From NCBI RefSeq assembly GCF_902459465.1, contig NC_047064.1, positions 640,762-704,761 on the forward strand: a stretch of DNA of 64,000 nt, read 5' to 3'. The DNA comes from Asterias rubens. Taxonomy: Eukaryota. Of the stretch, positions 5,400 through 47,027 are shown piece after piece. The notes below the pieces were generated by a model that was not told the origin of the DNA, ran no database searches, and was given only the letters and a program-made list of their open reading frames with translations. The position numbers and the translations under genes are program-made. Every line of letters begins with the position of its first letter. Position 1 is the stretch's first letter.

Positions 5400-5400
5400 T

Positions 5401-8607: not shown

Positions 8608-11384
8608 ATGCGCTGTGAAGGTGCGATTATTATAAGTGTGTACATCAATTCAAGCTGCATTCAAAATATTCATTCACAAATGGTGATGTCAATGAAATAG
8701 CATTTTATTTTTGTATAGTTTTTCAACTGTTTTATATTGTTCAACTTGAACTCAGTAATTTGTCTCTCATTCAATGTTTTGTACAGTCTATAGATTAGTT
8801 CCCACCTGAGGTGCTGTTCACACTTTAAAGTTGAATGTTTTTGAATGCACAAAGCAATTTGTTTTCTTCGCATAAATACTGCATGCGGCACAGACTTAAA
8901 CTCCTTGCATCATTCTTCAGTGAACCGCAGCATTAGACTGCTTTATGCGGCTCATTCAAGCCAAAACCCAAGTTGCTTGTAAAATTACGTCCATTACTGT
9001 CGAATAACTGCAACCAACTCCTCACAGGGAAGTGGTGTGGTGTGGCAAGTGGAAAACATTAGTGGTGAGCTCCCCTCATGAAAGTGGTCATTTGGATTTT
9101 ATCTAGCCTAGTCTTGAACGAGTCTATTGAAGGAGCTTCTCTTATACATTCTGGTAGGCGGTTCCATTCAACGAGTGTTCTTGGAACAAAAGAGAATTTG
9201 TAACAGTCTTTAATGGTTGAAGGGTGGGTGAACGCAATTTATGAGGATTTCCTAGTGATAATTTGGTTTTCCTGTGGTTTGAGTTGATACTGGTCCGTGT
9301 CGATAGCAATTTTATGGTGCACAGATTAATATTTAATGGATATTATCTGCACATATTATGGGGGAAAAAAAAAACCACCTTCCCACATGTGCACTAGGTC
9401 TCCTAAAAGACTGAGAACGAGTTTCAAAACTAGGGCAAAAGGCAAAATTTTGGATAAAGTACCAATACCCTTTAAAAGGTTTCAACCAAAACATTTGAAA
9501 ATTCTAGACCAATTTTTGTATGAGTATTATTTATTATGAGGTCTTCCTATAGTTTGTTCACAACACAAGACAACTTGATTGTAATTTTGTTACTTTCTGA
9601 TGTTTTTATGTGATAAATCATGGTTTTTGCGATTTAAGGTTTTGAACACAGTGTGTTTTGCATTGTTGAGTTTGACGCTTACCACCCCAACAATTCAAAA
9701 TCCAGCAGCATGTTTTGTTTGGGCGTGTTGCGCAAGCGCACCTGTTGAATGAGGTGCATTCTGGGATAGCTATGGATCCAATTTGATCCCTTGTTATCCG
9801 AAAATGCACCTTATTTCACGCCTAATGCGCACCTGAGTATTGCGAAAAACTTATTGTTACAGTGAGGAAGTATCCCAATAATTCGCTCATGGGTGTACTG
9901 TTTAGTGTTAGGGTGTTTTAATGGACCTGTCCTGTACTACACCCACTGCATTTTATTACACATGGTGACACCCCCTCTTGTTGATCATGTGGCAGTCCAA
10001 AGTCATTATTTGTGCTGATCTAAGTAATAGGAGATTCTATTTACAATCGCGTCTGTAATCTCAAAGTTATCTGTACAGTGGTGAGAAGGGCCTGCTAGGA
10101 CAAGAATGTGGTATCTTTAAATAGGGCATGATATCAATATTCTGGCCGTTCAAACAACTCAAATTTGAAGGTCCCCATGGTCCATTTTGTTGGCAAAAGT
10201 TGGTTTTGAGGTTCTTTAGTTATGGTAATTTTGAAATGGCTCTTAACGTTTGAGGACAAGAAAATGGAAAAAAGATGCCTTGTAGACTTTTGTAAAGTAC
10301 CAGGGGCTTTTCCCATTAGTCTCTTTTTTTCTCTTTTTTTCTTGAATGACCCCACAAGTAAACAAATACCACACAGACAAGATACACACACATACTGTAG
10401 CATCTTATTTTTTTCACACAGTCTGTTTTTATCTTCATGTAATATGTGATAAAGTGGCAGTAGGTACATTGTTTTGTTTTGATATTTCTTGTTATTAATT
10501 AGTTATGTCAAGATGAGTATAAATGTTTACAAGTGTAACTGTTGTATGTGTATGCGATTTTGTTATTACAATGTACGTGCTGTTTTGTGCCCAGTCACTT
10601 TCCAACACTACACTGATTGTACGTGAGCACAATGTAATCATTTGTGAATCTGACCTTATTTGAGAAACTATGTTGGCATTTTGAAGGTCAATAGAAATTC
10701 CATGGGCACTCATGCAAGACTGACCAGGTAGATACAGTTCACTGTCCATCATGGGATGAATTCTTATTTTGGTACTGTCTGTCTAGGAAAATGGAAAGTT
10801 GGTGTTTAAAGCAAGTTTACTGGCAATACATGTAGTCTGGAGTTTGTCCTGAACTGTTGGTGACTAGCCAGGAGGACAAGTTGTGTAGCTTCCACTGATT
10901 TCACTAGTCCCGGCCCCCAGCCCAAACGTACAATACAACAGGGACAGATGTCGTCCAGCAACTTTGTTTTAGCAAAATGTTTAGACTGTACAAGTTTTGT
11001 GCACACTGAATATTTATAATTGAGTGGCAAATGGTGGTTTTGGGGTAGCACTGGATACATTTTGGATAGCATTGTTCTCTGCTATATGAGGAAAATCGTT
11101 TTAGTTCGCTGTACAATTAAAGTCTTTAACACGTATAAATTTCCAAAGTATCGGATCAAATATCTAATTTTAGCATACTGCTACTTTTTGTAGTTGACGG
11201 ATTTGAAGGTTGGAATACTGGGTGTGACTAAGTAATGTACACCAAGAATGTGACATCAACTGTTTGTTTTGTTAAATTTGTTTGACTTAATTTGCACATC
11301 AGAAAGGAAAATGGCATTAATTGCCTTTCAATGTCACCTAATCTAACAGGTTTTTGTTTTGTTTTGATGTTTTCCTTTTCCTTC

Positions 11385-12424
11385 TCAGATAAAGGATCAT
11401 CCATGAAGTATAAAAGTCGAGCATCAACTATGGATGGAAGTGTAAGTGCTTTAAATTCTAATCGAGTTGGAAAATTTTTAGGCATTTGAGGTTCAGATTT
11501 ACTCAAGAGATTGGGTTGCTCGAGGAATATGCCAGTGATTTTTTTCACATAGCTCAAGAAATGACCGAGTATACAGTGCTAACACATGTTGCAATTCTAG
11601 AGCAGTGTCATACCAACTAGACCACCGAGGTTGCCCGGCAGCTAGAGGCAGTTCGAATCCTATGTTTTGGCAGCGGGTACCGCAACGATATAATAGATAT
11701 AATAGATGTTGAATTTGCATCGGGGATAAAGAATATTAATTTTGGTTTTTTACCCATACACCGATGTGTGTTAGCACTGTATACTCAGTACTTTCCCGAG
11801 TCCTGTGAAAAAATATCACAGGCATGTTACTCGGGTAACTTTTGTTTTCCCTCGCCCATCTTGAGGTATATTTTCTTATATTTGGTTTTGTACTGTTTGG
11901 CAAATAAAATAATAATAACATCCTAATCAGATAACAGTTGGTATCACATTGACATCCTGGTATTGCACGCATGTCGTACCTTAGTGTCGGATCTTCTTTG
12001 CATTGTGATTGGTCAATACGCAATGGGGCTAAGCTTAATGGATCGGTCTATTGTCTGAAACAAAAATCATGTTATTGGCCTGCTGGTCTGTCACAGGTTG
12101 TAGTTTGGGAACTGGCCTGGTGAACACTGACCAATCTTGTTTCTTTATCTTTTCTTCTATTCATTGTTCTATTGTAAGGGTGGCTGGTAATAGTATAAAA
12201 CATTGTGAGAAACAGCTCCCAGTGAAGAAACTAAGTTTTTGAGAAAGAAGTTATTTTCAACGAATTTGAAATTCGAAAGGATCTGAAAGCACACAACTTC
12301 GTGTGACACAGGTGTTTTTTCTTTCATTATTATCTCAGGTTTGTTGTTTTATGCATATTGAGATGGATACACTAAGTGAGAAGACTGGTCTTTGACAGTT
12401 ACCAATAGTGTCCAGTGTCTTTTA
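11385..12424 (+). mobile_element. segment E2 copy 2 (11385-12301) continuous with a MITE-A 3' end and TIR (12302-12424): a long MITE-A-related element
   Basis: After CACAACTTCG it continues tgtgacacaggtgttttt...accaatagtgtccagtgtc, exactly as the MITE-A interior does (cacgacttcgtgtgtgacaagggtg). Confidence 0.7.
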
Positions 12425-12504: not shown

Positions 12505-12594
12505 AGTCCTGTTCTTGATGGACCAACCACCCCAAGACAGAAGAAGATTGGCCACAGGAGGGTTGACACCTTAGGGGAAACAACATATAAAAAG
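12505..12594 (+). CDS. PIP5K1: PIP5K1 exon: SPVLDGPTTPRQKKIGHRRVDTLGETTYKK
   Basis: Matches the conserved PIP5K N-terminal motif KKIGHRxVD..GETTYKK. The acceptor is ctccctttag and the donor is gtaagt. Confidence 0.75.
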
Positions 12595-13029: not shown

Positions 13030-13155
13030 CTGTGTCATCTTGATCAGGCCTGTGTCATCTTGATCAGGCCTGTGGCATCTTGATCAGGCCTGTGGCATCT
13101 TGATCAGGCCTGTGTCATCTTGATCAGGCCTGTGTCATCTTGATCAGGCCTGTGG
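13030..13155. repeat. 21-bp minisatellite x6 (CTGTG[T/G]CATCTTGATCAGGCC)
   Basis: Direct tandem repeat. Confidence 0.9.
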
Positions 13156-15366: not shown

Positions 15367-17267
15367 CAGTTTGGTCCACATGTAAATGTACCTGGGTAAA
15401 TGAATTTGTAAACAATTGTTGTGTACAAGTGATCATTTTATCCTTAAAATAAACGGGGCATGAAAGGGTTTAAAAGTCATGATTTATATTTTAGTTTTGA
15501 TTGTATATAGGGGTTTGTGGCTTCATTTGTGCAGACATTGCATTCTAAACTAACCATTCTGTACAACAATAACGTACTGAGTAAATGTACACTGTCATTT
15601 ACATTGTAGCTGGCACATTTTGGGCTTTCTCAATCTTTATCGGAAATGTTCGGGGAGGGAAAATGGATGAACATTTAAGTGCCTACAGGTGTGGTGTGTA
15701 CATCATACATGGTGTTTCTAACCTAGTTGTTGGGACCAGTCCCATAAGAAAGTATACTGAGTGACATGTGATTATAAATGCAGACAGACATGACAGATCT
15801 ATACAGTGCTCTTGTCAAAAGCCAGCCTTAGGGTTAGATTATGACCAATCCATATACACGTACATGACTGATAACATTATATTGGCATTATGAAAACCAA
15901 TCACTAGTGGTGAATTGTTAGAAGGAATGATCCTGAAATCCATTGAAGTACGTACATGGTTCTGTTTGCAGGTCTTATTTCACTATGAGGATGTGAATTT
16001 GCCAAGTGACTTTGTTGATTTGTAAACTAAAGAAACCATTCAGTAATTTTAAACAAACAACTTGATGGGTTTTGGTTTTAATTCTAAATGTTAATTGCAG
16101 AATACTTCCCTTTTACATTACACTTGACATCTGATGATCAAAACAAAGTTTTTCGATTGAGATAGTTTTAATTTAATTGCGCTTGCTTTATTACATCAAA
16201 AGTTATTGTGTCATTTACAGTACTTAACTATTGATGTCTCACGCACATAAACTGTACAACATACGTATACCGTGTACTGATTGTTTAACTTCAAATACTA
16301 TTATTCTTAACATGAGGGAACCAATCTTCATTAATTGTACTGTACCATTGTATTTTGTGTATGATAGAATTACAAGCGGTTAGTGAAGGACATGCAAAAA
16401 TCGTAGACATTACGCTAACTTGTTCTTTTGACTAGTCAGCCAGGCAGTTGTCTAGCCAGTGTCAGTTCTGACATGTTGTCAGTTATGACAGTTCCTTCAA
16501 TGTATCTAAAAAATCATAATATACATAAAATCATTATTTCAAATGGGTGGGATACTAGTGTTTTACAGACACTACTAGCCAGGCTTTTACAGAGTCAAGT
16601 TTGCCTTGATTTAGCCTAAAAAACTTAACAAAAATAGTAAACAAATAAAATTTAAAAAATTAGCGAATTAATGCATTTTATGCAGCGCTAGACTTAATGT
16701 GCATTGCCCTTCAAACAGCTGCTGTGTGTTCCATTGCCTGTCTATGTCACACATAGACTGTTAGTGTACACACTGAAAATAAAAAACGATTAAAAATCAA
16801 TCGTAAAGCACAGCAGTTATTGAATTAAAATTACCATCGGTTTATTTCTGTGATTGTTGTGACATAATAGAATGGTCTGCAGCAAAGGTACATCGTTGCT
16901 CTAACTTATGTTTCCGTTCTAAATAGCGCTGCTGTGTAGCAGTGTGGTCAGACTGTCTATACCCTTGAGGGTTAACATAATATGTCAAGGTATGGAGTGC
17001 AGGCTGATTTCCCTATTAGCCAATACAGTTCAAATAACCACAGGCTAGATTGACCAAGATTCATAATTAGGATATTATTTTGTGGAGACGTCTTTTGCTT
17101 GTTTTTGTTTCTGTTGGTGTCAGTTACAGTGCACTCCCACTGGTGATGGTACACTTATGTCTTGAAAATGCCATGAAGGGAATGTCATCATGGAGGGAAT
17201 TGTTGTTCACAACTTCACTTTAAAATTTACTGTTCCTCCATGCTACAGTTTCACAGTAACGGCATTA

Positions 17268-17570
17268 TTAAAGCCATTGGACCCTTTCGGTTCAGAAACA
17301 AAAACAAAAAGTTCACAGATTTACAAATAACTTACAGGGTTTACAGTTAAGGCAAGCAATGGTGAAAGACTTCTCTTGAAATATTATTCCATGAAATGCT
17401 TTACTTTTTGAAAAAACAGCAAAACAATATAAATTCTCGTTAACAAGAATTACGGATTTATTTTAAACACATGTCATGACACGGCGAAACGCGCGGAAAC
17501 AAGGGTGGGTTTTTCCGTTGTTTTCTCCCGACTCCGATGACCGATTGAGCCTAAATTTTCACAATTGGAA
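17268..17570 (+). mobile_element. MITE-D 5' part (truncated; no 3' TIR)
   Basis: TTAAAGCCATTGGACCCTTTCGGT... Its interior is identical in organisation to 50925-51293. Confidence 0.6.
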
Positions 17571-20721: not shown

Positions 20722-21459
20722 GCGTTGCATTTTGTTGCTTGTGTCGTAGACCTATTTCACGACCCACATTCTGTGTAGAGCAGACACTACGTGCAACACA
20801 CCAAAAGCAAACTACATATTCAAAAAGAAACTTTACCATATAATTGGGTTACTGAACCTACAATAATACACAAGTAACACACCATTGATATTGTATTTTT
20901 GTAACTTGATGTCCTGGTTTCTCATTGTTGCATTTGATCTTGAGATGTTGTGTTTGCATTGATCAAACAAGGAAAACAGTTTCATATAATTATTACACTA
21001 TACAAGAAAAAAGTATAGTGTGTCATTAGTTTCCTTGGGATTGTTCACCCAGTAATTTTTTGTAATTTATATAGTTTTTATATTGTTTGTGTATATTGTA
21101 TTTGGCCAGTGTATGTCAAGTTTCTATGTTTTTAACATGGACAAATAAATAAAATCTAGTCTAAATCTAATCTAAATTTAATCTAAATCTAATTACATGT
21201 AGTATAGTGTACAGAATATTGTGTCAATACAGTGTGCATGTATGAGAGTGGGAACCATAAATTCATTACATGTTAATTTGGTTGCAAAAATATCTAAGTT
21301 GTGTATTATTTGATCATCTGGCTCCATCTGACAAGCCTTAAACATTTTAGATGTTTGTTCATGGTGATATGGTCTAATCCAATAATCAATTTGTGAATGT
21401 TTATGGAGTTTGCAGAGAAGTTTAACCAATACTTTTTCTGGTATATTCTTTCCTTGCAG

Positions 21460-21518
21460 ACAAGTTCTTCGGCTTTGATGGCCGCAATTCAACTTGGTAT
21501 TGGTCATTCAGTGGGAAG
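21460..21518 (+). pseudogene. partial duplicate (copy 1) of the 5' 59 nt of PIP5K1 exon 21656..21786 with its acceptor; no donor
   Basis: Part of a 98-bp x3 tandem array (21421-21714). The third copy is the real exon start. Confidence 0.7.
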
Positions 21519-21557
21519 TTTAACCAATACTTTTTCTGGTATATTCTTTCCTTGCAG

Positions 21558-21616
21558 ACAAGTTCTTCGGCTTTGATGGCCGCAATTCAACTTGGTATTG
21601 GTCATTCAGTGGGAAG
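21558..21616 (+). pseudogene. partial duplicate (copy 2) of PIP5K1 exon start with acceptor
   Basis: Same 98-bp array, identical in sequence. Confidence 0.7.
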
Positions 21617-21655
21617 TTTAACCAATACTTTTTCTGGTATATTCTTTCCTTGCAG

Positions 21656-21786
21656 ACAAGTTCTTCGGCTTTGATGGCCGCAATTCAACTTGGTATTGGT
21701 CATTCAGTGGGAAGTTTATCAGCCAAACCAGAGAGAGACGTCCTTTTACAAGACTTCGCCGTCGTCGAGAGTATATTTTTCCCAAG
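21656..21786 (+). CDS. PIP5K1: PIP5K1 exon: [43 protein letters not shown](S)
   Basis: Near-identical to the vertebrate PIP5K1 segment [36 protein letters not shown]. The acceptor is ccttgcag and the donor is AG|gttaaa. Confidence 0.9.
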
Positions 21787-22002
21787 GTTAAAACTTAAGA
21801 CTTTTCTATTCTATAAAAATATCTTATATTATTGAATACTGTGGGGGGGGGGGGGGGGAGCTCATGCACTTCAGAGCATTTCAAACTATATCAGGACAAA
21901 CCCAAGAGAGTTTGAGGAATGTGGTTTACTGTGCCAGGCTTGTATGCTTTGTTTTTGAAATGGCACCAAGTATGGGGCACCCTTTGAGGAAATTGTGAAT
22001 TC

Positions 22003-22757
22003 CACTGATGTTATTGATTTCACTGATGTTATTGATTTCACTGATGTTATTGATTTCACTGATGTTATTGATTTCACTGATGTTATTGATTTTACTGATG
22101 ACATTGATTTCACTGATGACATTGATTTCACTGATGTTATTGATTTCACTGATGTTATTGATTTCACTGAAGTTATTGATTTCACTGATGTTATTGATTT
22201 CACTGATGACATTGATTTCACTGATGTTATTGATTTCAGTGATGTTATTGATTTCACTGATGTTATTGATTTCACTGATGTTATTGATTTCACTGATGTT
22301 ATTGATTTCACTGATGTTATTGATTTCACTGATGTTATTGATTTCAGTGATGTTATTGATTTCACTGATGTTATTGATTTCACTGATGTTATTGATTTCA
22401 CTGATGTTATTGATTTCACTGATGTTATTGATTTCACTGATGTTATTGATTTCACTGATGTTATTGATTTCACTGATGTTATTGATTTCACTGATGTTAT
22501 TGATTTCACTGATGACATTGATTTCACTGATGTTATTGATTTCACTGATGTTATTGATTTCACTGATGACATTGATTTCACTGATGTTATTGATTTCACT
22601 GATGTTATTGATTTCACTGATGTTATTGATTTCACTGATGTTATTGATTTCACTGATGTTATTGATTTCACTGATGTTATTGATTTCACTGATGTTATTG
22701 ATTTCACTGATGACATTGATTTCACTGATGACATTGATTTGATTTCACTTATTTCAC
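22003..22757. repeat. 18-bp minisatellite (CACTGATGTTATTGATTT, variant ..GACATTGATTT) ~41 copies inside PIP5K1 intron 21787-22807
   Basis: Explains the 244-282-aa ORFs in three frames (21886..22734-, 21995..22810+, 22008..22742+). Confidence 0.95.
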
Positions 22758-22807
22758 TGATTTTGATGATTTTATCTGATTTTAACTTCCATTCAATCCT
22801 GTTGCAG

Positions 22808-22925
22808 TGAGGGGAGTAACATTACACCAGCACACAGTTATCCAGACTTTAGATTCAAGACATATGCACCAATTGCCTTCCGATATTTCAGAGAACTGTT
22901 TGGAATTCAACCGGATGACTTCTTG
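22808..22925 (+). CDS. PIP5K1: PIP5K1 exon: (S)[39 protein letters not shown]
   Basis: Matches [38 protein letters not shown]. The acceptor is tgttgcag and the donor is gtgagt. Confidence 0.9.
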
Positions 22926-27200: not shown

Positions 27201-29090
27201 TGAGTAAGTTATTAAGATGTAAAGCCTTGAGACTTCTTATAGGGCTCAGGGGTATATGTCTACTTCGACCCTTTCCCACTGGAGAGATTTTACTGGAAAT
27301 TCTGAGAAAAATTATATGACCTTTTCACACCTCGATTATTCACCCTTCAAAACTCAATAGGTACCCTTCATTTGGGTGTGGGGTTAAGGGCTAGGCTTAC
27401 AGTTTTCATTTTCCACAGAAGTGTAAACTGAAGATGGGTGAAAGTGGGGTTCAAATTCCCCAGGGTTTCGGTGGTGTGAACAGGGCTAAGATAATGCCTG
27501 AAGCCTCTCTCATTGTCCTCTAGTCTTGCCTCACCACAATGCAATTACTTGTTTAGTCCCTTGGGTCTGTCTGTCTGATGGCATTGTCTGTCTGTCTGTA
27601 TTAATGCATGCAATTTGCATGTAATTAACTAGGAGTCGCTCAAATGGACAGTGAACTTGAGCTGATGCTTTTTGAGCCCATTTCACAAGTCATTATGGGC
27701 TGTTTATAAACATGTATCTCTAACGGCCTGGACGCTTGGATATATTATTCTAATTATGCTGAACCAGGGTCGATCGGCACAATCTCTCTACATGGGGACA
27801 AGGTTGTCAATGTGTGTGTAAAACCTCAACCCCATGATGTCGGCCATGTAATTTGATTAAGAGACCTTAGTGATGGGAAGAGGGGGGGGGCGTGGCGTGT
27901 TGTAACGTGTACCTTTGCCACTGTATGCAGATTCTGTGCGTGTAACGGAAGAGCAGAATTAAATTAAATAAATTAAAGGCTATCAACACCATACATGTGA
28001 TTGGGAGACCGTCTCTAATTGAATTAAGAGAAATTAAGTGTAATAGGTACATATGTACATGGATAAGGGAACATCAAATATGCTAAGCAAAATAAGCTTA
28101 CCAGCCAAAATACCATGTCACATACATGTATGACTGGTGTTGTTTGATTGGTTATTTTTTCTTGCTTAGCAGAAAAATTGTTTTAACAAGCAATATTTTA
28201 TGCTTAGTACAGCTCTATGACATTGAGCACAGGTCCATGAAGACAGAAATTTAATGGTTCCAAAACGCAAAGGTATGCTTTGTCTATAAATAGCCTGGAA
28301 GGTAAAATAAAGCCTACACTATAAACAAGTACATGTGTGTAGGATAGCCGATTAAATACTTGACTAAATATTCCTACGTTTTTCCATATCATGTCTGATT
28401 AGGCTATCCCTTGAAATATTTTTGTTCTCTTAAAAATTAAAGGATTGAAATGAAAATGTTGGACTGAAAACCAGTGCTGTAGCATTCCTTGAAAGGACAT
28501 TGCTCTTTTTGTAAATCCTTTAGGTCTACCTTATGTTTTTGGTTAATCTACCCAGGCTGCCTGTCAATTTAGGGTCTTATTGAGGTTCATACACGGAACA
28601 CCTTAACGTCATCAGAGATTGCACATATGTTGCAATATATGATACTATATGACCTTTACAGACTGAGTAATGGCGTTATAATGTACTGTCTGTATGAATG
28701 GATTGTTACTATACAAACGTGTAAGCTTCAAACGCTCAAACTGAGTGCCATGAGAGCACATTTCACAAACACTAGAATGAAAGACGACAATTGTTTAACA
28801 GATGTTGGACACACATGAACGATACGTGGATGTAATTTATGCAGATAGACAGCTTGGTTTAAAAATACAATTAACGATGAACCTGTATGTCATGTTGATC
28901 AAATTTAAATGTCTGATTTTTAACTTGCTGTCTCAGTCAGTAGTATTTTGTTGTTAATCTTGTTGTTGGTTATAAAATACAACAAACATGTAACATGTAT
29001 CATGTTGATGAAATTGACATGCCTGGTTTTAAAATTTTATCTTGTGTTCTCATTTATGTCAGTAGTGTGCTGTTGTTTTGTAATTTAAAA

Positions 29091-29196
29091 TTAACTTATT
29101 AAATGTATTTTCTAAGAAACACAGCCAAATACTCCTGTGATTTTGTTTACGTGAGTATTTGGCTGTGTTTCTTAGAAAATACATTTAATAAGTTGA
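29091..29196. repeat. hairpin: 44-bp stem (1 mismatch) and 18-nt loop
   Basis: ttaacttattaaatgtattttctaagaaacacagccaaatactc ... gagtatttggctgtgtttcttagaaaatacatttaataagttga. Confidence 0.85.
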
Positions 29197-29749
29197 TATT
29201 TTACCAGCCTGATGAACGTCTTTCATGAATTTAAAATTAGCAGAACAAGGCCATAGGAAAAGACGATTGTAAGAACAGATGAAAATTTCTCTGTTTTTAG
29301 ATAAATATCTTCTTCAAGAAGTAAAATCTCATCGACCTTGGAAGACAGATGATTTTCCATTGCAGCACCGCATTTCTGGAATCAGCTATCCCTAAAACCT
29401 CTAATAATATTCACTCATTCAAAAAGTCTCTCAAAACACACCTACATTTAGTTCCTCTTAACTTAATTTTCTTTTGGTCCCTTTACCTTGCTTGATTTTC
29501 TCTTCCTTTGGTAGAGCGTCTTGAGCAACTTTGGTGGATTTGTGCACTTTATAAGACCTTGTCATTATTATTATTGTTGCCTAAGATGGTCCGGTCTAGA
29601 TCAAAAGCTAAGGCCATCTACCCTACGCCTTGAACACCCAGCAGGGTGGATATGTGCGCATTACAAGTCTTATTATTTATTATTTATTTATTTTTTATTA
29701 TTATACCGTACTTTACACTTTAGTCATTTTCCGTTTTGATTCTTTGTAG

Positions 29750-29902
29750 ATATCTCTGGTAGATCAGGCTTTACGAGAGTTGTCTAATCCTGGAGCTAGT
29801 GGAAGTGTCTTCTATCTTACTGATGATGATGAGTTTATCATTAAGACTGTACAACATAAGGAAGCAGACTTTCTTCAGAAGCTGCTACCCGGTTATTACA
29901 TG
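29750..29902 (+). CDS. PIP5K1: PIP5K1 kinase-core exon: [51 protein letters not shown]
   Basis: Matches the PIPK catalytic core motif [11 protein letters not shown]..[26 protein letters not shown]. The acceptor is tctttgtag and the donor is gtaagt. Confidence 0.95.
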
Positions 29903-29960
29903 GTAAGTCAAACATCTAAAGGTTGTGGGTTCAAATCTCACCCGAGTCATATATCCCTAT

Positions 29961-30086
29961 GAGTTGTCTAATCCTGGAGCTAGTGCGAGTGTCTTCTATC
30001 TTACTGATGATGATGAGTTTATCATTAAGACTGTACAACATAAGGAAGCAGACTTTCTTCAGAAGCTGCTACCCGGTTATTACATG
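29961..30086 (+). pseudogene. duplicate (copy 2) of the PIP5K1 kinase-core exon segment LSNPGAS(A)SVFY...GYYM with an intact gtaagt donor; 2-nt change GGAAGT to GCGAGT
   Basis: Member of a 184-bp x3 tandem array. It lacks the 27 nt 5' of the real exon. An AG at 29962-29963 (tatgag) would give an in-frame 123-nt cassette. Confidence 0.6.
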
Positions 30087-30144
30087 GTAAGTCAAACATC
30101 TTAAGGTTGTGGGTTCAAATCTCACCCGAGTCATATATCCCTAT

Positions 30145-30271
30145 GAGTTGTCTAATCCTGGAGCTAGTGCGAGTGTCTTCTATCTTACTGATGATGATGA
30201 GTTTATCATTAAGACTTGTACAACATAAGGAAGCAGACTCCCTTCAGAAGCTGCTACCTGGTTATTACATG
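30145..30271 (+). pseudogene. degenerate copy 3 of the same exon segment (1-nt insertion frameshift; further substitutions)
   Basis: 184-bp array; aagacttgtacaac has one extra T compared with the real exon. Confidence 0.6.
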
Positions 30272-30662
30272 GTAAGTCAAACATCTTTGCATCTTGAAAC
30301 GGAAGTTCATGAGATTTGTTCTTCAATTTAAAGGTAGATTGGCAAAGGTCGTGGGTTCAAATCCCACACGAATCATTTGCCTGTGATTTAATTTGTTTTT
30401 CTTCACAGAACTCTGAAAAGTACTGAAGTATACAGTGCACATCAGTGTGAGGGTAGAACCTTTCACTAAATATGAAGGGTTTTTTTCCCCTTTTTAAATG
30501 CGCCGTTTTAAAGTCACCTGGAAATATTTTTTTTTTTCTTTCAAACATAAGAGTATGTGCTTACGAATAATAAAACAATTTTTTTAGTAATTGTTTGTCA
30601 CGATTTATATGTTTAAAAAATATATAAAGTTGTTAGGGGGGCTGACTCCGCCTACCCCTTTT

Positions 30663-30924
30663 GTGACGTCAATCGAGGCAGACTTTGCCTGCAATGCGTA
30701 TAGTAAACACACGTGCAAAGTACATGTACGTCCAAGTCGTGAGTTGGTACATTTCAAAAAGTGTTTTTCTGCATTCAGCAGCAATACACCTGGTCGGCAT
30801 TGCCGGAAAAAAAACAATTTTTTTTTTTTTTAAATGTACAAACTCACGACTTGGTCCGTACATGTACTTTGCAATTGTGTTTACTCTACGCATTACAGGC
30901 AAAGTCTGCCTCGATTGACGTCAC
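30663..30924. mobile_element. inverted-repeat element: ~110-bp arms (~88% identical) starting GTGACGTCAATCGAGGCAGAC, ~40-bp spacer
   Basis: Symmetric ORF translations on both strands (30605..30817- versus 30761..30967+), and the arms are visible in the sequence. Confidence 0.5.
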
Positions 30925-31939
30925 GAACAGCGCCCTCTCGGGTCGGGGTCTACTCTTAAATTTGTAAATAACATAAGAACTGGTTTTTTAAAACCTTAGT
31001 TAACTGTTTATTCACATTCCACTCATCAAAACACATATATTAGTGACAAAAGCTTTATTTTGAAAAAGTACCACTTCCAGGTGACTTTAAATTCATCACT
31101 TTGCAGGGTTACAAAATTTCAGTTATTTTTCTTATCAACATTTAGAAAAGCTTAACAAAATTAACTCAGATTTTTTGTTTTACACAGAATTTTGAAACAC
31201 CTACAACAGAACAAGGGTAATTTTAGTTTCAAGCCCCCCCCCCCCCCCAAAAAAAATATTAAAAAAATAAATAAATAAATAAATAAATAAAAGCGGACTG
31301 AAAGAGTCAAAGGAAGGATCTGAGCTCCTCCTTTGGGATTATTATCTTACGGGTCCTCCATGACTGGAGAGGGATTTATTAATATTTCTTAAGACTTAAG
31401 AGTCATTCATTATTCACATAAATACCCATTGGCTCTTTGTCTAGTACATGTTGTTCATGACGCCAGTACATCCCGACTTGCAACAAATTACATGTAATGC
31501 ATGTATTTTTTTCGACAGGAAAATAAATAAATAAATTCTGGAACATCTGGGACGTTTTTCCTCCCAAATTGCTTGAGCAAACAAAGTTGTAAAATTTGAT
31601 CCCACGCAAAGAGAGTTTGGATGAATAATCATGCTATGTCAATGTGTAGTACCACCATATTGGGTGTGACTCATTTACACTAAAACCAATATTTCATTTG
31701 CAGATATTGTTTTTGTCTTTTGGTCCATTTTGTCATTTTCCAAATAGAATAGGAAATAAAATTAGCTGTTGCAAAATGCTTACCGACCAAAAGGACCAAT
31801 AGTGTAAAATAAAAAAATAGTTAATTGACCTCACTTTGACCAGACTCTGCTAGGGTCAAAATGGGACAATAACTGTTTTTGCAATAAATATTAATTTAAC
31901 CCCATATTTTACATGAAGTTTCTTTCTTTACCGCTCTAG

Positions 31940-32239
31940 AATCTGAACCAAAACCCGCGAACGTTACTACCCAAGTTCTATGGATTGTACACCTACCAGA
32001 GCGGAGGTCGTAATATTCGTCTGGTTGTTATGAACAACTTGATGCCATCAGACATTACAATGCACCAGAAGTTTGACCTGAAGGGGTCAACATACAAGAG
32101 GAAGGCTTCAAAAGCTGAGAGGCAGAAGAAATCTCCAACATTGAAAGATTTAGATTTTATGGAAGTGCATCCGGAGGGTTTAATGTTAGACACTGCGACT
32201 TACAATGCTCTGGTGAAGACACTACAGCGTGACTGTAGG
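31940..32239 (+). CDS. PIP5K1: PIP5K1 exon: [38 protein letters not shown]...[32 protein letters not shown]
   Basis: 100 codons, colinear with vertebrate PIP5K1 ([50 protein letters not shown]). The acceptor is ctctag and the donor is gtaggt. Confidence 0.95.
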
Positions 32240-32364
32240 GTAGGTACTATGTGGAGCTAGATTTATCCCCTTCTTGGTCCTCCCCTCTCAGAAAAAAACT
32301 TTGGTATCTTTATTATTGTTTGATATTCTAGATCTAGATACATTCAGACAGGCCTTGAACTTTC

Positions 32365-32622
32365 CTCTGGAAGGGGCAGGGCATGTGTCCTCTGGTAAGG
32401 GGCAGGGCATGTGACCTCTGGAAGGGGCAGGGCATGTGTCCTCTGGAAGGGGCAGGGCATGTGTCCTCTGGAAGGGGCAGGGCATGTGTCCTCTGGAAGG
32501 GGCAGGGCATGTGTCCTCTGGAAGGGGCAGGGCATGTGTCCTCTGGTAAGGGGCAGGGCATGTGTCCTCTGGAAGGGGCAGGGCATGTGTCCTCTGGAAG
32601 GGGCAGGGCATGTGTCCTCTGA
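32365..32622. repeat. 25/28-bp minisatellite (GGGGCAGGGCATGTGTCCTCTGGAA) x~10 in a PIP5K1 intron
   Basis: Direct tandem repeat. The ORFs at 32288-32843 are artefacts. Confidence 0.9.
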
Positions 32623-33117
32623 AAGGGGCACTTCTATGGGGAAAGGTCAATTTGTATTTGAACTTTGCAAAAGGGCACCACAGTAAAAGCACAGGGCACC
32701 ACGTTCATGTAAGCTGTAGATGCTTCAATTTCCCTTCATCCCAAATGTCCTCCTATTTTGCTCTCTGGTTATCTGCTGGCAGCACAAATACTTCTTATGT
32801 CAGTAAAGTAACCGGTAACCATTTGCCTCTGAATCTGAACTAAGTCGGCAACACATCCTAATGGAAACATCACACCAACTATTTGTGGAGAAGACACTGA
32901 AGAAATTCCAGTTTTAATTGTGGGAGAAAAACCCCTTTATAGGGTAAACCCACGCAGTCAAGCGGGGGAAGAAAAAAAATCTGGAAAACAAAATCCACAT
33001 GCAAGGCTCCGGTCTGGGCTCGAACCGGGGTTCAAAGAAGTGAAAGGCATATAGAGAAATAACTTAGCCAGCCTGACTACCAATACTTACTTACTGTGGA
33101 TTTTCTCTCTATTTCAG

Positions 33118-33195
33118 GTCTTGGAAAGTTTTAAGATTATGGATTACAGTTTACTGGTGTCAATGCACAATGTTGACCAAGCAGAGACTGAAAAG
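33118..33195 (+). CDS. PIP5K1: PIP5K1 exon: VLESFKIMDYSLLVSMHNVDQAETEK
   Basis: Matches VLQSFKIMDYSLLMSIHNIDHAQRE. The acceptor is tatttcag and the donor is gtaagt. Confidence 0.9.
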
Positions 33196-33433: not shown

Positions 33434-33765
33434 GGGGGGGGGGTTGAACCAACGACCTCCGGATTAACGTGCCGGCGCTCTACCAACTGAGCTATCCCCT
33501 GGTGATCCCCTGGATGCCGCTTCCCAGGTTATATCGGAATTTGGGTGTGATCCCTGGCTACACGGCAGTTGACGGTTACATGGCTTCTGACTGGCACCTA
33601 TTGACGAAATAGGGACACCGCTAATATAGGGCTAGATAGCTCAGTTGGTAGAGCGCCGGGTTGTTGGTTCGAATCCCACTCTAGTCAATTCTTTGTTCAA
33701 CCCCAAAAGTCATTTAAAAAATTACCCAGTCAGTTTCCCTTGTGGTTTATATTGATAATTATTAT
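33434..33765 (+). mobile_element. composite tRNA-derived SINE locus: inverted partial tRNA-like head, X region, forward tRNA-like head (anticodon arm deleted), AATTCTTTGTTCAACCCCAAAAG tail
   Basis: GGGCTAGATAGCTCAGTTGGTAGAGCGCCGG..GTTGGTTCGAATCCCACTCTAGTCA. It is the reverse complement of locus 51749-52065. Confidence 0.55.
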
Positions 33766-33821: not shown

Positions 33822-34099
33822 CGCAATGAAAACAACAGTACAGACGGCAACACAGAATCCAGAACAGCTGATATTCAGCAACCTCAACAGACCTCTGAGA
33901 TTATTAAACGTCCAACGATGCTCCGAAGTCTCTCAGATTCAGGTTCGGCTGAAGAGCATCATGGAGATAAACCACCTCACAGATTAGAAAGATCCAAGTC
34001 TTATCTTAATAAATCCAAACGGCCTGCTTTCTCGACAACGAGAGAGGCGATTCAAGGGCATACGAAGGAAACATGGGTGCCAGAAGATGAAGAGGAACC
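33822..34099 (+). CDS. PIP5K1: PIP5K1 variable-linker exon (92 codons, Ser/Glu-rich; ...STTREAIQGHTKETWVPEDEEEP)
   Basis: Open frame from the acceptor ggttag to the donor CC|gtaagt. Both phases link the flanking conserved exons. The AIQG motif aligns to vertebrate AMESIQGE just before the GGIP motif. Confidence 0.7.
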
Positions 34100-34595: not shown

Positions 34596-34679
34596 GAATG
34601 GTGGTATTCCAGGCAAGAATTTCAAAGGAGAACGTATCGAACTGTTTATAGGAATTATTGATATATTGCAATGCTTCAA
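34596..34679 (+). CDS. PIP5K1: PIP5K1 exon: (P)[27 protein letters not shown](K)
   Basis: Matches [27 protein letters not shown]. The acceptor is ttttcag and the donor is AA|gtaagt. Confidence 0.9.
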
Positions 34680-35489: not shown

Positions 35490-35623
35490 ATTGAAAAAGA
35501 AATTAGAACACACGTGGAAGAAAATGGTGCATGATGGAGACACAGTTTCTGTTCACCGACCGAGCTTCTACGCCTCGCGCTTTCAAGAATTTATGTCCAA
35601 AACTGTCTTCAGGAAGATGCCAC
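35490..35623 (+). CDS. PIP5K1: PIP5K1 exon: (K)[44 protein letters not shown]
   Basis: Matches [44 protein letters not shown]. The acceptor is ccaaacag and the donor is gtaagt. Confidence 0.9.
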
Positions 35624-35664
35624 GTAAGTCAAGAGTAGATACCAAAAGATGATTAGGATTCAAC

Positions 35665-35785
35665 CAGTAAAACTGTCAATCAGTAAAACTGTCAATCAGT
35701 AAAACTGTCAATCAGTAAAACTGTCAATCAGTAAAACTGTCAATCAGTAAAACTGTCAATCAGTAAAACTGTCAATCAGTATATT
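35665..35785. repeat. 16-bp tandem repeat (CAGTAAAACTGTCAAT) x8
   Basis: Direct tandem repeat. Confidence 0.9.
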
Positions 35786-36440: not shown

Positions 36441-36643
36441 AGGGTAATTGATCAGCCCTACCAATACATAGGGTAATTGATCAGCCCTACCAATACATAG
36501 GGTAATTGATCAGCCCTACCAATACATAGGGTAATTGATCAGCCCTACCAATACATAGGGTAATTGATCAGCCCTACCAATACACAGGGTAATTGATCAG
36601 CCCTACCAATACACAGGGTAATTGATCAGCCCTACCAATACAT
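36441..36643. repeat. 29-bp tandem repeat (AGGGTAATTGATCAGCCCTACCAATACAT) x7
   Basis: Direct tandem repeat. Confidence 0.9.
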
Positions 36644-37399
36644 ACATGTAGTCCAAAAATTCTGTTCAGAACACTGCTTGGGTTAAAAATTCATTCCTTA
36701 TCTTACTTTTAACAAAAAGATGGCATAAAGATAGCCAGTGTGTTTGCTTTTGTTTTACATTTAAAAATACAAAGTGTGATATATTTTGAAGTGCTTAACA
36801 ATTCTTCAATGTTTGTTGCTGATTCTTATATCCATGTTTTTTACAAACTGTAAACAGCTTGATTGGTTGAGCTTTGAGTGTTGTGTTCTCCTGCGCATGA
36901 GTGACTTGATTTTCACCTCATTTTTGCGTGTGTTGCTTTATTCTTTCTTTTCTGTTTTATTTTTTATCCTCTTTTTGATGCTACTGACCTTGCATGATTG
37001 ATGAGTGACTAATACCAGTCTATTACATGGTAATATCTTCAAGAAAGCTGTATCATTTTCATCCATTTGTTTGTTCCCCCTCCTCATTTATCACTTTCCA
37101 TCATATTTTCGTTGGTGAAATGTTTTTTTAAGCTGATATTAATTTCACAGAATGATATAATCAAGCCTGTATCTGCTCTGACTGAATAGCTCATTCTTTT
37201 AAAAGCAAATGATGCATTGCTGTCTTTTTTTGCGGCTTATTTAAGGTCTTCTTTATGTCGGTTTGACTAGCTCTCTCTATGAAGACAATGGCGGTTGTTC
37301 ATCTTGACTCACTTTGTCATAACTTTACTTTTAACTGGATCACAAACTAAAGGCCTTTGTTTTCTATTTAGCAAAACTTGTTCTCGTGTTTCACAATAA

Positions 37400-41981: not shown

Positions 41982-43168
41982 CACTCAGCTACCCTCTCTT
42001 ATCCCAATAGCTACCAACTCTCAATACCGCAGCTACCCTTTCTCACCCCCACAACTACTTAATATCAACCCCTTAGCTATTTAGTCTAAACCACAAATTT
42101 ACCCGCTCTCAACCCATATAGCTATCCACTTTCAACCCTATAGGTACCCACTCTCAACCCTATAGGTACCCACTCTTAACCCTATAGGTACCCACTCTCA
42201 ACCCCATAGCTACCCACTCTCAACCCCATAGCTACCCACTCTCAACCCCATAGCTACCCACTCTCAACCCCCTAGCTACCCACTCTCGACCCCATAGCTA
42301 CCCACTCTCGACCCCTTAGCTACCCACTCTCAACCCCCTAGCTACCCACTCTCAACCCCATAGCTACCCACTCTCAACCCCCTAGCTACCCACTCTCAAC
42401 CCCCTAGCTACCCACTCTCGACCCCATAGCTACCCACTCTCAGTCCCATAGCTATCCACTCTCAACCCCATTGGTACCCACTCTCAACCCTATAGGTACC
42501 CACTCTCAACCCCCTAGCTACCCACTCTCAACCCCCTAGCTACCCACTCTCAACCCTATAGGTACCCACTCTCGACCCCATAGCCACCCACTCTCAACCC
42601 CATAGCTACCCACTCTCAACCCCCTAGCTACCCACTCTCGACCCCCTAGCTACCCACTCTCAGTCCCATAGCTACCCACTCTCAAACCCCTAGCTACCCA
42701 CTCTCAACCCTCTAGCTACCCGATCTCAACCCTATAGGTACCCAATCTCAACCTCTTAGCTACCCACTCTCAACCCCATAGCCACCCACTCTCAACCCCC
42801 TAGCTACCCACTCTCAACCCCCTAGCTACCTACTCTCAACCCTCTAGCTACCCACTCTCAACCCCATAGCCACCCACTCTCAACCCCCTAGCTACCCACT
42901 CTCAACCCCCTAGCTACCCACTCTCAACCCCCTGGCTACCCACTCTCAACCCCATACCTACCCACTCTCAACCCCATACCTACCCACTCTCAACCCCCTA
43001 GCTACCCACTATTGACCCCCTAGCTACCCACTCTCAACCCCCTAGCTACCCACTCTCAACCCCAGAGCTGCCCACTCTCAACCCCCTAGCTACACACTCT
43101 CAACCCCATAGCTACCCACTCTCAACCCCATAGCTACCCACTCTCAACCCTATAGCTACCCACTCCAA
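41982..43168. repeat. ~1.2-kb satellite of a 22-bp unit (TAGCTACCCACTCTCAACCCCA and variants) ~54 copies in the last PIP5K1 intron
   Basis: Direct tandem repeat. Confidence 0.95.
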
Positions 43169-43701: not shown

Positions 43702-44794
43702 GACAAGAAGTCTGATTCCTCATTAGGATGGTCGGACACTAACACCTGTTTGCCAAGATCTGAACCTAATTGTTTTTCATCAATGACATCTCAGCAAATA
43801 CAGGGGCCAGCTTATGATAATTGTGAACTAACGGCAAGTCATGAGTGTTATCGGAAGATTTAACAGCTTCTTGAATGACTGATAAGTGTGCAGACAATGG
43901 GCTTCTAACATCATCATGTTTAATGAACTAACGCATTAGAGTTAACCTTCAAAGACTACGCTTTAATCAGTAAACTCTGCCAAAGTCAAACCTATGGAGC
44001 TAATTAAAGAGGACTTCATGTATTCTTAGTAACTTTATCTTTAAACCAATTGAGGAAATGTGCACTAAAATGTAAATTTCCCTGTAAACAATTACGAAAA
44101 ATAAGAAACACAAATACCTTGTTTAGGGGGGAGTTCATGCAAGTTTTGTGTTAATTTTGTTTTGTAATGCATCAAAGTTCCAAAGTTCTTTGCACTGCAA
44201 AATCTCCCTGCTGCGGTGGGTATTTCACAGATGTCAAGTTCAAATTATACAACATGCAATTTCCACTAATGACAGTGATTTGTTTTCCCTAATTGGCAGC
44301 TATTTCAACCTTGATTATTTTGCTTTGGCTTCGCCAGCTGTAACCCATCTGCAATAAAGTACCATTAAGGCATTAAACCCCAGTCTATTCTGTGCACTAA
44401 AGGATGTTTTCCACCATTCATAAACCAGGACTCAGTTTCACATGATAAGGATAGCTTCAGGAGGTAGTGCTTTCTGCTCTACCAGTCAGGCGTCGGATTG
44501 ATGATACCCAAGCCTACATTCTTATGGACTGTAAAGGGGGTAACCCTGTTTCAGCCCCAAGAGTAGGTGGCATCGACCCCTCGAAAAATAGTTGATTGTA
44601 GACCACACCTTGTAGTGGCCTTCAGGCCTTGTGTGTCAGGCAACTTGCATACAAACATTTTAAAGATAGTGGTCTGCTACAGAAATTCTTACTCTCAACA
44701 ATCAAACCTGGGAAACCTTTCATTCAGCACATGCTTAAATTGAATTCAGGAAACAATACTAATATGGTTACATAAATAACACTGTTTTACATGC

Positions 44795-45165
44795 TTAAAG
44801 CCATTGGACCCTTTCGGTAAACAGTATTGTCCAAGGCCCACACTTCGTGTGTCACAACATCTATATCAAATAACAAACCTGTGAAAATTTGGGCTTAATC
44901 GGAGTCGGGAGAAAATAACGGGAAAACCCACCCTTGTATCCGCGCGTTACGCCGTGTCATGACATGTGTTTAAAACAAATCCGTAATTCTCGTTAACGAG
45001 AATTGGTATTGTTTTACTGTTTTCTCAAAAAGTAAATCATTTCATGGAATAATATTTCAAGAGAAGTATTTCACCACTACCTTCTGTAAACCCTGTAAGT
45101 TATTTGTAAATCTGTGAACTTTTTTTTTTTTTTTTTTTTTTACCGAAAGGGTCCAATGGCTTTAA
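44795..45165 (-). mobile_element. MITE-D full copy with internal poly-T (45121-45141)
   Basis: TIRs AAAGCCATTGGACCCTTTCGGTA / TACCGAAAGGGTCCAATGGCTTT with TTAAAG flanks. Confidence 0.7.
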
Positions 45166-45420
45166 AAGGCTGTTATTATTTGGCATATTTAGTGATAAGA
45201 TATGTATCTTTGTTAGTTTCCTTTAAGTTGTTACCAGTGATGGGGCATCTTGAGCCAAATACTTTGCTTTTTACCTTTGTATCTAGCACTTTGAGGCCTT
45301 TTTTTGCAATTTGGCGCTTTATAAATATCTTTTTATTATTATTATTATTAATAGATCATTACCTCCTTTTGCTAAATCAAACTAAAACTTAAAGCGTTAA
45401 ACCTTAAGACTTTTAATATT

Positions 45421-45489
45421 GACTTTTGGGGTTGAACAAAGAATTGACTAGAGTGGGATTCGAACCAACGACATCCGGATTAACGTATT
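45421..45489 (-). mobile_element. tRNA-derived SINE fragment (tail plus T-arm/anticodon part)
   Basis: ggggttgaacaaagaattgactagagtgggattcgaaccaacgacatccggattaacgt. Confidence 0.5.
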
Positions 45490-47027
45490 GCTTATTTGTC
45501 ATTGTTCAAAATTATTATTCATCATTCAGTTTACTTTGCAATTTGGTTGTCACTTTTTTTGTAAGTGGCATGATTTTGATGATTCTTTTGTACCAGGTTT
45601 CCTAAAGATGCTAGCTTTGAAATATCATGCATAACAATGTACATCCTGCATAACTAAAAGAAAATTCAGTTATTTTTGCTTCCCTCAATGCAGCTAGATT
45701 ACTTGTAGTTGACATTAATCCTGGGGGTGGGGGTAAAGTTGATAGCGTTTAGATGCTGGTCTTTTTGAAGTTTGTCATATCGATGAGGTAGATATCTCTA
45801 CAAGAAATTGTCTTTTCTTTCAGTTTACAGAACATGTGCAGCACACAAATGCTCTGGTATTTTGTCAACCAGCAGCATCCCTTTTTGAACCAAACATTTT
45901 TGAGAAAGTTCAAAAGATGAAAAATCTTAGGAGGAATTGCCATAAGAGGAATGGTTCAAATGTAGTACCAAAATGCTTACCACATGTCTTAGGTTGTAAC
46001 AAAGTCGAGTGTTATGTCAGGTTCAATACACCTAAAGTTGGTTTCATTTCTTGTGGTTGGTAGTGATTTCATAGAGCTACTTATCTTACAATTTGTTGCA
46101 TGTTAACATTTCTTATCGCTGAAATAAACTGCTTGATCAAAGTAGCATACTAACAAACTGCAGGTCTCCAACTAACCCATGGCACACATGCTGCCCTGTG
46201 TTTTTTCTTTGGTGCCCTTTGCAAATACAAAGTAATTTTTTCCCCATAGAAATGCCCGATTCAGAATTGTTGTGCTCCTTCCAGAGCAATGATAAGGTCC
46301 TTTCAAAAAGGCAATCATCTCGTTTTAACGCCCAAAGTTAAGTCATTTAAAATGCATTTCCCAGGCTGTATTTTTAAAACACTATGCTGAATCCAATGCT
46401 GACAGTCAAACTTAGCATAAAGATGAGAAAAGATAAGTTTGATTGAGTTAAAACCACTGGAAATGTGAAGAGTATTTCACTGCATTACATTAGAAAAACA
46501 TTTTTCAGAGAAGTTGTCTTTTAATTTGCCGGTAGAACTTGTCTGACCTCTGCTAGAATGTGATGGTTTTTGGAAATACCTTAAACAAAAGCTAAAAGTT
46601 TGTCTACATTTTGATAGCATTTCTGAATTGTGTAAGTTGCTGAGACAATATGTTGTCAAACTTACCAAACCTAATTTTAGTTGTAAATTGAAATTGTAAA
46701 AATTGTGAATATTAATTTTGGTTAATTGTTTAATTCTAAAAGCTGCTTTGTCTAATTTGGGATGGTTGAAAACACTAAACCAGTCCCTTTTTATTTGATT
46801 GGATAGATGTACAGTATACATACACACACAATGACACAATAGTGCACACAGCTCAGTGTTACAGCCGATCTGGGGACATTTTGTTCTATCTGTGCACTTA
46901 TGACAAAAAGTATTCTTCAACACTGTCAAAAACAATTGTGTGGCCGTGTGTAAGTCCAAATAGTGTTTCATGTCTGCACAATATTTGAAATTCTTTTGTT
47001 CTCTCAGGTCCACATTTTGTGTCTATT

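Follow-up and report, generated by a model that had tools for sequence, protein, structure and literature searches.

A probable lineage-specific tandem duplication across an exon–intron border of a type-I PIP5K gene

Why would a conserved kinase gene carry the end of one of its exons, together with the splice donor that follows it, nearly three times in a row? The question is raised by a 64,000-nt stretch of NC_047064.1, referred to here as the window, in which all coordinates are window positions on the + strand and all features are read on that strand. It has three parts, namely whether the repeat is real, how it arose and what it does to the transcript. The answer put forward is that, in sequence prone to tandem arrays, a real, lineage-specific tandem duplication probably straddles an exon–intron border of a type-I PIP5K gene that is intact in other respects.

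The host is an intact gene for a type I phosphatidylinositol-4-phosphate 5-kinase (PIP5K). Its exons were placed on the + strand with a human PIP5K1A sequence that served as a probe only, and the splice sites were set by eye and then verified by translation (Table 1). Each of the nine exons is preceded by an AG acceptor, with C or T at -3, and followed by a GT donor, and more PIP5K C-terminal sequence is found near 40.5 kb. The joined product of 455 aa is free of stops when copy 1 of the 184-bp array discussed below and the last acceptor of a second, 98-bp array are used. This product matches Pfam PF01504 (PIP5K) with 329 bits over 284 of the 288 profile positions, and it matches the zebrafish PIP5K1A crystal structure (PDB 4TZ7) with an E value of 1e-163, compared with about 1e-47 for PIP4K2 (type II) chains. 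The gene is assigned to type I because the match to the PIP5K1A structure is far better than the matches to type II kinases. The Pfam and structure matches also bear out the claim of a first-pass annotation of this DNA that a PIP5K catalytic-core exon segment and its donor are tandemly repeated within the gene. The affected exon (29750-29902) encodes the part of the N-lobe with the glycine-rich loop (G-loop) and the IIKT lysine. The PIP5K introns measure 0.4-9 kb; those around this exon are 2-7 kb long, and those around the two exons affected by arrays are 1-9 kb long.

Table 1. Exons, array copies and tRNA-like pieces in the PIP5K region (window positions)
Feature	Position	Strand	Remarks
PIP5K exon	12505-12594	+	
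98-bp array, 3.1 copies, 100% identical	21417-21718	+	TRF; exon probe matched the exon at 21.6 kb three times
PIP5K exon, acceptor and 5' part triplicated by the 98-bp array	21656-21786	+	
PIP5K exon	22808-22925	+	
PIP5K exon, 153 nt, phase 0/0, 51 codons	29750-29902	+	acceptor ttctttgtag; donor ATG/gtaagt at 29903
Copy 1 of 184-bp unit	29777-29960	+	last 126 nt of real exon, 15 nt of intron start, 43-nt junction piece
Junction piece F, first copy, 43 nt	29918-29960	+	tRNA-like 3' half with variable loop, T arm and 3' strand of the acceptor stem; 10-nt tail
Copy 2 of 184-bp unit	29961-30144	+	pseudo-exon fragment 29961-30086, frame open; donor copy at 30087
Junction piece F, second copy	30102-30144	+	
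Copy 3 of 184-bp unit, partial (142-143 nt)	30145-30287	+	pseudo-exon fragment 30145-30271; donor copy at 30272; native intron next
tRNA-like element D, 63 nt, native intron	30313-30375	+	Rfam tRNA 27 bits; fold
3' half of D plus tail, nearest available relative of piece F	30344-30389	+	
PIP5K exon (ends RDCR), supplies the acceptor for any of the three donors	31940-32239	+	
PIP5K exon	33118-33195	+	
PIP5K exon	33822-34099	+	
PIP5K exon	34596-34679	+	
PIP5K exon	35490-35623	+	

The 184-bp array is placed by TRF at 29777-30286, with 2.8 copies, 97% matches, 0% indels and a score of 969. The copies lie head to tail in one orientation, a repeat finder and blastn agree with TRF, and the blastn E values for the unit (1e-96 for copy 2 and 7e-62 for copy 3) indicate a similarity far above chance. 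Each full unit is made up of 126 nt of coding sequence that ends in LLPGYYM, 15 nt of intron, gtaagtcaaacatct, which include the donor, and 43 nt of tRNA-like sequence. The first-pass annotation described three units between 29777 and 30330, each with about 55 bp of intron. The tandem repeat, the 126 nt of exon and the donor are all real, but the third copy is incomplete, the array stops at 30286/30287 and is followed by unique intron at 30288-30330, and the intron within a unit comes to 58 nt (15 + 43).

Copies 1 and 2 differ at three bases in a base-by-base comparison. Two of these are the GA to CG change at 29986-29987, through which codon 29985-29987 in the GASGS loop goes from GGA (Gly) to GCG (Ala), and the other is an A to T change at 30102, which had been missed when copy 2 was described as intact apart from the Gly to Ala replacement. 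Copy 3 has the same GCG as copy 2 and an additional T at 30216/30217 that shifts the reading frame. It was this insertion that had been reported for copy 3, and the changes of TT to CC at 30240-30241 and of C to T at 30259 had gone unnoted; the changes in this copy include a Phe to Ser replacement in the original frame. Copy 3 is without the tRNA-like piece. Both the tag acceptor and the initial 27 nt of the exon precede copy 1 only, and copies 2 and 3 are exon fragments, so that the view of copy 1 as the sole carrier of the full exon and its canonical acceptor is confirmed at the base level. The copies have diverged from one another by 1.6-4%. The duplication had been called very recent, which is true only in a relative sense, as the nested pattern of differences needs at least two events separated by mutation.

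Are the additional copies still constrained to encode a kinase? The Gly that is changed in copies 2 and 3 is invariant in 120 of 120 homologous exon fragments (GASGS in 116 and GAGGS in 4). Because this residue is lost and copy 3 is frameshifted, the two copies appear to have been freed from coding constraint, and they look like unconstrained pseudo-exon remnants that are decaying in the intron. Copy 2 alone keeps an open frame. It had been proposed that an AG at its start would make it an in-frame cassette of 123 nt, and the arithmetic of this proposal is correct, as 29964-30086 is 123 nt long, in frame and free of stops. The acceptor and the residue, however, speak against it. The only usable AG ahead of copies 2 and 3 is tatGAG, which has G at -3 and a pyrimidine tract of 63% and is weaker than all nine real PIP5K acceptors (68-89% pyrimidines, C or T at -3), its use as a cassette acceptor implies an upstream intron of 61 nt, and copy 2 encodes Ala at the invariant Gly. 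An in-frame acceptor at aaAG/G (29920-29921) was also considered and was ruled out, as it lies 17 nt past the donor. Neither extra copy combines an acceptor and a donor of its own with a preserved frame and preserved residues, as a cassette exon does. The three donors (29903, 30087 and 30272) are identical over at least 15 nt and lie 184-185 nt apart. Use of either downstream donor extends the exon through a TGA at 29960-29962, and the identical duplicated donors would be a more direct risk to the transcript than the cassette.

The sequence that closes copies 1 and 2 is the 43-nt junction piece AAAGGTTGTGGGTTCAAATCTCACCCGAGTCATATATCCCTAT. Past copy 3, after the same 15-16 intron bases, the intron goes on as ttgcatcttgaaacgg and not as the junction piece. 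Because the piece marks the junction of the duplication and does not recur after copy 3, it reads as a junction insert and not as contiguous native intron or as a flanking repeat that mediated recombination. The piece ends in ATATCCCTAT, and exon sequence follows directly, without a SINE body, a tail or an A-rich end. In the first-pass annotation it was labelled a tRNA-like SINE fragment. The tail of the unit is indeed tRNA-like, but there is no dispersed family in the 64 kb and no body or tail that would make it a SINE. When the 64-kb window was searched for other copies of the junction piece (with up to 3 mismatches and by short-word blastn), only the two junction copies and the tRNA-like element D were found, and a search of metagenome contigs for SINE-family relatives with a degenerate 32-mer of the tRNA-like piece gave no match.

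Element D scores 27 bits with the Rfam tRNA model, just short of the gathering score of 29 bits, and it is not called by ARAGORN; in its fold the acceptor stem and the T arm are both perfect, and the middle has collapsed. Its 3' half begins at 30344, which is 57 nt past the breakpoint. Piece F matches this half at 29 of 33 core positions (88%), and at 83% over 48 columns with two gaps, and the alignment spans the junction, where exon GAGTT is aligned with intron GATTT. A microhomology of GA or GA(G/T)TT, common to the exon and the D tail, is present at the return point, and no clear microhomology was found at the CATCT/AAAGG switch. There are 8 mismatches in 43 positions between F and D, compared with 6 in 141 between the exon-part copies (Fisher p 0.005, or 0.04-0.10 for the core only). 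Because the divergence between F and D is greater than that among the exon-part copies, the idea that the piece was copied from D at the time of the duplication fits poorly, and the piece may instead have been copied from an unseen member of D's family. At one of the four core mismatches, F has the state of the window's tRNA-Asn-like repeats and D differs. The tRNA-Asn gene of the window and the tRNA-Asn-like repeats were considered as a source of the piece and were rejected; they are about 80% alike, which is worse than D.

A second array is found at the opposite border of another PIP5K exon. The 98-bp unit consists of 43 nt of intron end, with the pyrimidine tract and the cag acceptor, and 55 nt of exon start, and the array is thus the mirror image of the 184-bp array. 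It is flanked by an 8-nt direct repeat, GAAGTTTA. These octamers are a textbook signature of slippage, and the array probably arose by slippage between the two. There are three identical acceptors, 98 nt apart, before 21460, 21558 and 21656. The frame is open from the last of these only, and use of either of the other two leads to a stop after 69 residues in the 455-aa model, counted from exon 12505.

Does the presence of two arrays on exon borders of a single gene call for a special explanation? The window contains 33 tandem arrays that make up 8.1% of its bases. When arrays of the same lengths are placed at random, 1.06 of them (whole window) or 1.21 (gene span) are expected to contain an exon border, and 2 were observed, with a probability of 0.28-0.35 for two or more. 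An enrichment of arrays at exon borders, which might have hinted at a mechanism linked to splicing or transcription, was rejected on this basis. Two border arrays in one gene are not special because random placement suffices in DNA that is this prone to arrays. The same gene region also holds kilobase duplicates that are 100% and 99.9% identical. Two hairpins, at 29092-29194 and 30658-30929, match Rfam microRNA families at scores far below gathering and were read as MITE-like inverted repeats.

Other genomes bear on the direction of the change. The exon is single-copy in five of the five loci from relatives (L001-L005), where it has the same 51-codon borders and there are no tandem arrays. These are distant relatives, with 75-82% nucleotide identity over the exon. 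Among homologous exon fragments the best reach 86% identity along the whole exon, or as much as 93% along a part, and no protein from the same species or a close relative was found in the collections searched. Because all five relatives carry the exon once, the comparison with related species places the triplication as a derived state, which would be specific to this lineage. Seven ORFs, the junction-spanning ones among them, were looked up as exact matches in a collection of 15 billion proteins and none was found, and a metagenome scan for a 30-mer of the exon end and intron start gave no match.

The order in which the copies were made can be proposed from the differences between them. Two successive events are indicated because the derived GCG is found in copies 2 and 3, copy 2 is otherwise like copy 1 and three further changes are confined to copy 3. 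In the first step, a replication or repair error would have made a second copy of the exon's final 126 nt together with the 15-16 nt of intron that follow, and the junction would have been left with 43 nt related to the tRNA-like element D, which lies 57 nt deeper in the intron. This may have been one event with two template switches, in which 57 nt were skipped, about 43 nt of D were copied and synthesis returned about 240 nt upstream at GA(G/T)TT (GAGTTG). It may also have been a plain duplication of 241 nt that was followed by a deletion of 57 nt in the upstream copy. The two routes are regarded as equally good accounts of the structure. In the second step, the downstream copy would have gained the GGA to GCG change, and a third would then have arisen from the two copies by unequal exchange or slippage, with a crossover between unit positions 27 and 72 that created the middle copy.

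When a donor is duplicated in tandem, the complete exon invariably stays first in the array, and when an acceptor is duplicated, the complete exon stays last. Judging from the splice-site anatomy and the long flanking introns, the donor nearest to the exon's own acceptor (29903) should win, and the same should hold for the acceptor at 21656. When the flanking introns are large, the sites that are closest across the exon are preferred (PMC9225289). Another quoted rule of splice choice would pick the wrong donor here, and this was counted against the best explanation. Copies 2 and 3 would be spliced out as intron and would then decay. Leaky use of 30087 or 30272 would give transcripts with premature stops, and some leakage of this kind is plausible.

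How do other explanations of the locus compare? One is that the array is an artefact of assembly and that in truth the locus has a single copy, or fewer copies than assembled, either as a result of repeat mis-assembly or because divergent haplotypes were laid side by side. The 98-bp array is 100% identical, as assembly stutter would also give, and perfect repeats such as this array and the kilobase duplicates of the gene region are typical of very recent events or of assembly errors. The protein collection lacks the junction ORFs and both metagenome scans are empty, which leaves the array with no independent sighting. Nevertheless, an artefact is considered unlikely. The main argument is that the differences among the three 184-bp copies are nested, which stutter would not yield. 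Stacked haplotypes would require alleles of a conserved kinase in which an invariant Gly is replaced and a frameshift is present, and they would not make the exon-to-tRNA-like junction twice. The window is also without N and crosses minisatellites of 0.7-1.2 kb free of gaps, and long reads, which we infer were used, would span the 510-bp array. It has also been considered whether SINEs drove the duplication, by recombination between dispersed tRNA-derived copies or by an insertion with a very long target-site duplication. Such an origin would agree with the tRNA-like nature of the junction piece, with the related tRNA-like element in the same intron and with the tRNA-Asn-derived repeats elsewhere in the window, and the layout of 141 nt, a 43-nt insert and 141 nt formally resembles a target-site duplication around an insert. 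It is nonetheless very unlikely. The downstream tRNA-like copy has no counterpart upstream of the array with which to pair, so recombination between repeats cannot yield the structure, and the suggestion of the first-pass annotation that an adjacent SINE fragment mediated the duplication was dropped for this reason. The insert corresponds to the 3' half of a tRNA-like head and has nothing of a body, tail or A-rich end, further family members are lacking in the 64-kb window and in the metagenome contigs, and the similarity of the piece to the window's tRNA-Asn-like repeats is no more than about 80%.

Could the extra copies instead serve the gene? Copy 2 might be used as a cassette that adds a Gly to Ala duplicate of the G-loop, or the duplicated sites might act as regulated NMD decoys that tune PIP5K output. 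The open frame of 29964-30086 and the copy 2 donor, which is the same as the real donor over at least 15 nt, would fit such a role, as would a branch-like CTCAC about 22 nt 5' of the AG, as read from the sequence. Identical donors that are 174 nt apart compete in vitro (PMC3413131), and a single gene holds two arrays that copy splice sites. These points are set against a GAG acceptor that has the weakest pyrimidine tract of the set, an upstream mini-intron of 61 nt where the other introns measure 0.4-9 kb, and the lack of coding constraint, which is evident in the frameshift of copy 3 and the loss of the invariant Gly from both extra copies. A tandem repeat of 41 aa within the kinase N-lobe would be unlikely to fold, the two border-spanning arrays match random placement and the five relatives do without arrays. 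A functional splicing element therefore seems highly improbable. Even less credence is given to the idea that the two arrays form a natural splice-decoy system, which would divert a regulated share of the PIP5K pre-mRNA into premature-stop transcripts, or that they provide a tissue-specific isoform with a duplicated Gly to Ala G-loop. If that were true, the dosage of a core phosphoinositide kinase would be controlled through a recent tandem duplication of splice sites. Taken together, the cassette and decoy roles are given a very small residual chance.

The preferred reading, a real tandem duplication over the exon–intron border with extra copies that would be lost with the intron, makes the locus useful in several ways. 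It is a clean worked example of how a duplication across a splice site spares a gene, since one full exon and the correct neighbouring site survive. Provided that the copy numbers are real, it is also a natural setting, with long introns, in which to study how splice sites are chosen. The insert at the junction may record template-switching repair in the germ line of an animal. In addition, the locus is a hazard for annotation, as the extra copies could lead gene predictors to a false repeat of 41 residues in the kinase core.

Tandem exon duplication can give mutually exclusive or cassette exons. The PIP5K array resembles such duplications in that a coding segment lies in tandem within one gene and copy 2 keeps the frame and a donor. 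It differs from them in that the copies are partial exons without the first 27 nt and the acceptor, that copy 3 is frameshifted and that an invariant residue is lost. Tandem duplication that supplies splice signals, through the AG/GT proto-splice site, is also an accepted route of intron evolution (PMC2891723, PMC3265369, PMC4974935). As in intron gain by duplication of an AG/GT segment, the PIP5K duplication brings ready-made splice signals and the surplus copy lies within an intron. In the PIP5K gene, however, an existing donor or acceptor is spanned and the intron is merely lengthened. No new intron position is found, as both arrays span splice sites whose positions match those of the relatives.

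The locus may also be compared with pre-mRNAs designed for the study of splice-site competition. The model pre-mRNA C174C has two consensus 5' splice sites that are 174 nt apart (PMC3413131), and rules for exon and intron definition have been described (PMC9225289). The PIP5K gene is alike in that it presents a natural design for competition in cis, with three identical donors spaced by 184-185 nt and three identical acceptors spaced by 98 nt. It differs from C174C-type pre-mRNAs in that it is a natural gene with kilobase introns.

With respect to mechanism, the closest parallels are found in end joining and template switching. In C. elegans, end joining by polymerase theta gives tandem duplications that range from about 100 bp to 10 kb and whose junctions show microhomology and templated inserts (PMC8654963). 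The PIP5K arrays may be likened to polymerase-theta and FoSTeS/MMBIR duplications in their size, in the GA(G/T)TT match at the return point, in an insert that resembles sequence 57 nt from the breakpoint and in the 8-nt repeat at the 98-bp array. The inserts of those systems, however, are normally near-identical to their template, whereas the PIP5K insert is 83-88% identical to D and its template is uncertain.

Partial-exon tandem duplications are common polymorphisms. In a Drosophila survey, as cited in PMC2891723, there were 1901 duplications with a median length of 367 nt, 624 of which contained exon sequence. The PIP5K duplication shares with the small intragenic duplications of Drosophila its head-to-tail copies of a few hundred bases over an exon–intron border, its derived state and the retention of one complete exon. 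It differs from them in having three copies and not two, a 43-nt insert at each internal junction and a second, independent array at another border. By this comparison the PIP5K locus is a real but ordinary case of a known type of partial-exon tandem duplication, and its points of interest are modest: an insert at the junction, three copies, and a mirror-image array elsewhere in the gene.

PIP5K contains a second tandem array, a 98-bp unit that lies over the acceptor of the exon at 21656-21786. The array carries three copies of the intron end, the acceptor and the first 55 nt of this exon, and an 8-nt direct repeat, GAAGTTTA, is found at its bounds. The three acceptors are identical; splicing to two of them would shift the reading frame and lead to a premature stop. 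About 19 consecutive G residues are located shortly 3' of the same exon (21843-21861) and could be a replication obstacle. Tandem arrays make up 8.1% of the window in total. Minisatellites are numerous, and several of them lie directly 3' of PIP5K exons.

Repeat and coding features of the window
Feature	Position	Strand or gene	Details
98-bp array	21417-21718	PIP5K	x3.1, perfect
Minisatellite	13030-13154		20 bp x6
Minisatellite	21999-22763		18 bp x41
Minisatellite	32363-32630		25 bp x10.6
Minisatellite	35660-35781		16 bp x7.6
Minisatellite	36441-36644		29 bp x7
Minisatellite	41987-43165		22 bp x53
Inverted repeat	29087-29200		48-nt arms, 96%
Inverted repeat	30660-30927		71-nt arms, 93%, 126-nt spacer
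tRNA-Asn-related tRNA-like copy	33630-33687	+	
tRNA-Asn-related tRNA-like copy	about 45440-45490	-	
tRNA-Asn(GTT) gene	51765-51837	-	63 bits
Open reading stretch	59790-61328	-	512 aa

A larger duplicated unit of 1948 bp is present in two head-to-tail copies, which together occupy 4366-7347 and 11382-12301, in a more GC-rich region 5' of the first mapped PIP5K exon. One matching part, 4366-5399 and 6314-7347, is 100% identical and the other, 5398-6317 and 11382-12301, is 99.9% identical. The second copy is interrupted by about 4 kb (7348-11381) with a junction overlap of TTCG. A very recent duplication combined with an insertion could account for this arrangement, as could an error of assembly. 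At the other end of the window, the long minus-strand open reading stretch contains two Pfam domains, doublecortin (DCX, 31.8 bits) and protein kinase (Pkinase, 128 bits), the latter represented by its first half. The stretch forms one large exon of a neighbour of PIP5K, a doublecortin-like kinase gene.

The 184-bp array, which repeats the end of another PIP5K exon (29750-29902) with its donor, has a strong inverted repeat on either side. Two neighbouring repeat fragments that resemble each other lie at 29500-29700, shortly 5' of that exon, each with a GTGCxC...TTAxAAG motif at its end followed by an ATT-rich microsatellite; no further copies were detected in the rest of the window at the sensitivity used. 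The two inverted repeats look like MITE-type hairpins, and their matches to plant microRNA families in Rfam are sub-threshold: 46 bits for MIR9486, and 114 bits for MIR2646, where the gathering score is 245.

The tail AATTCTTTGTTCAACC is common to the tRNA-Asn(GTT) gene and its tRNA-like relatives in the window, of which there are at least two, and blocks of 83-90% similarity connect 33500-33708, 44794-45175, 50925-51294 and 17257-17558. Taken together, the tail and the blocks suggest that the window holds a tRNA-Asn-derived dispersed repeat family, one that is distinct from the 43-nt tRNA-like piece in the 184-bp array.
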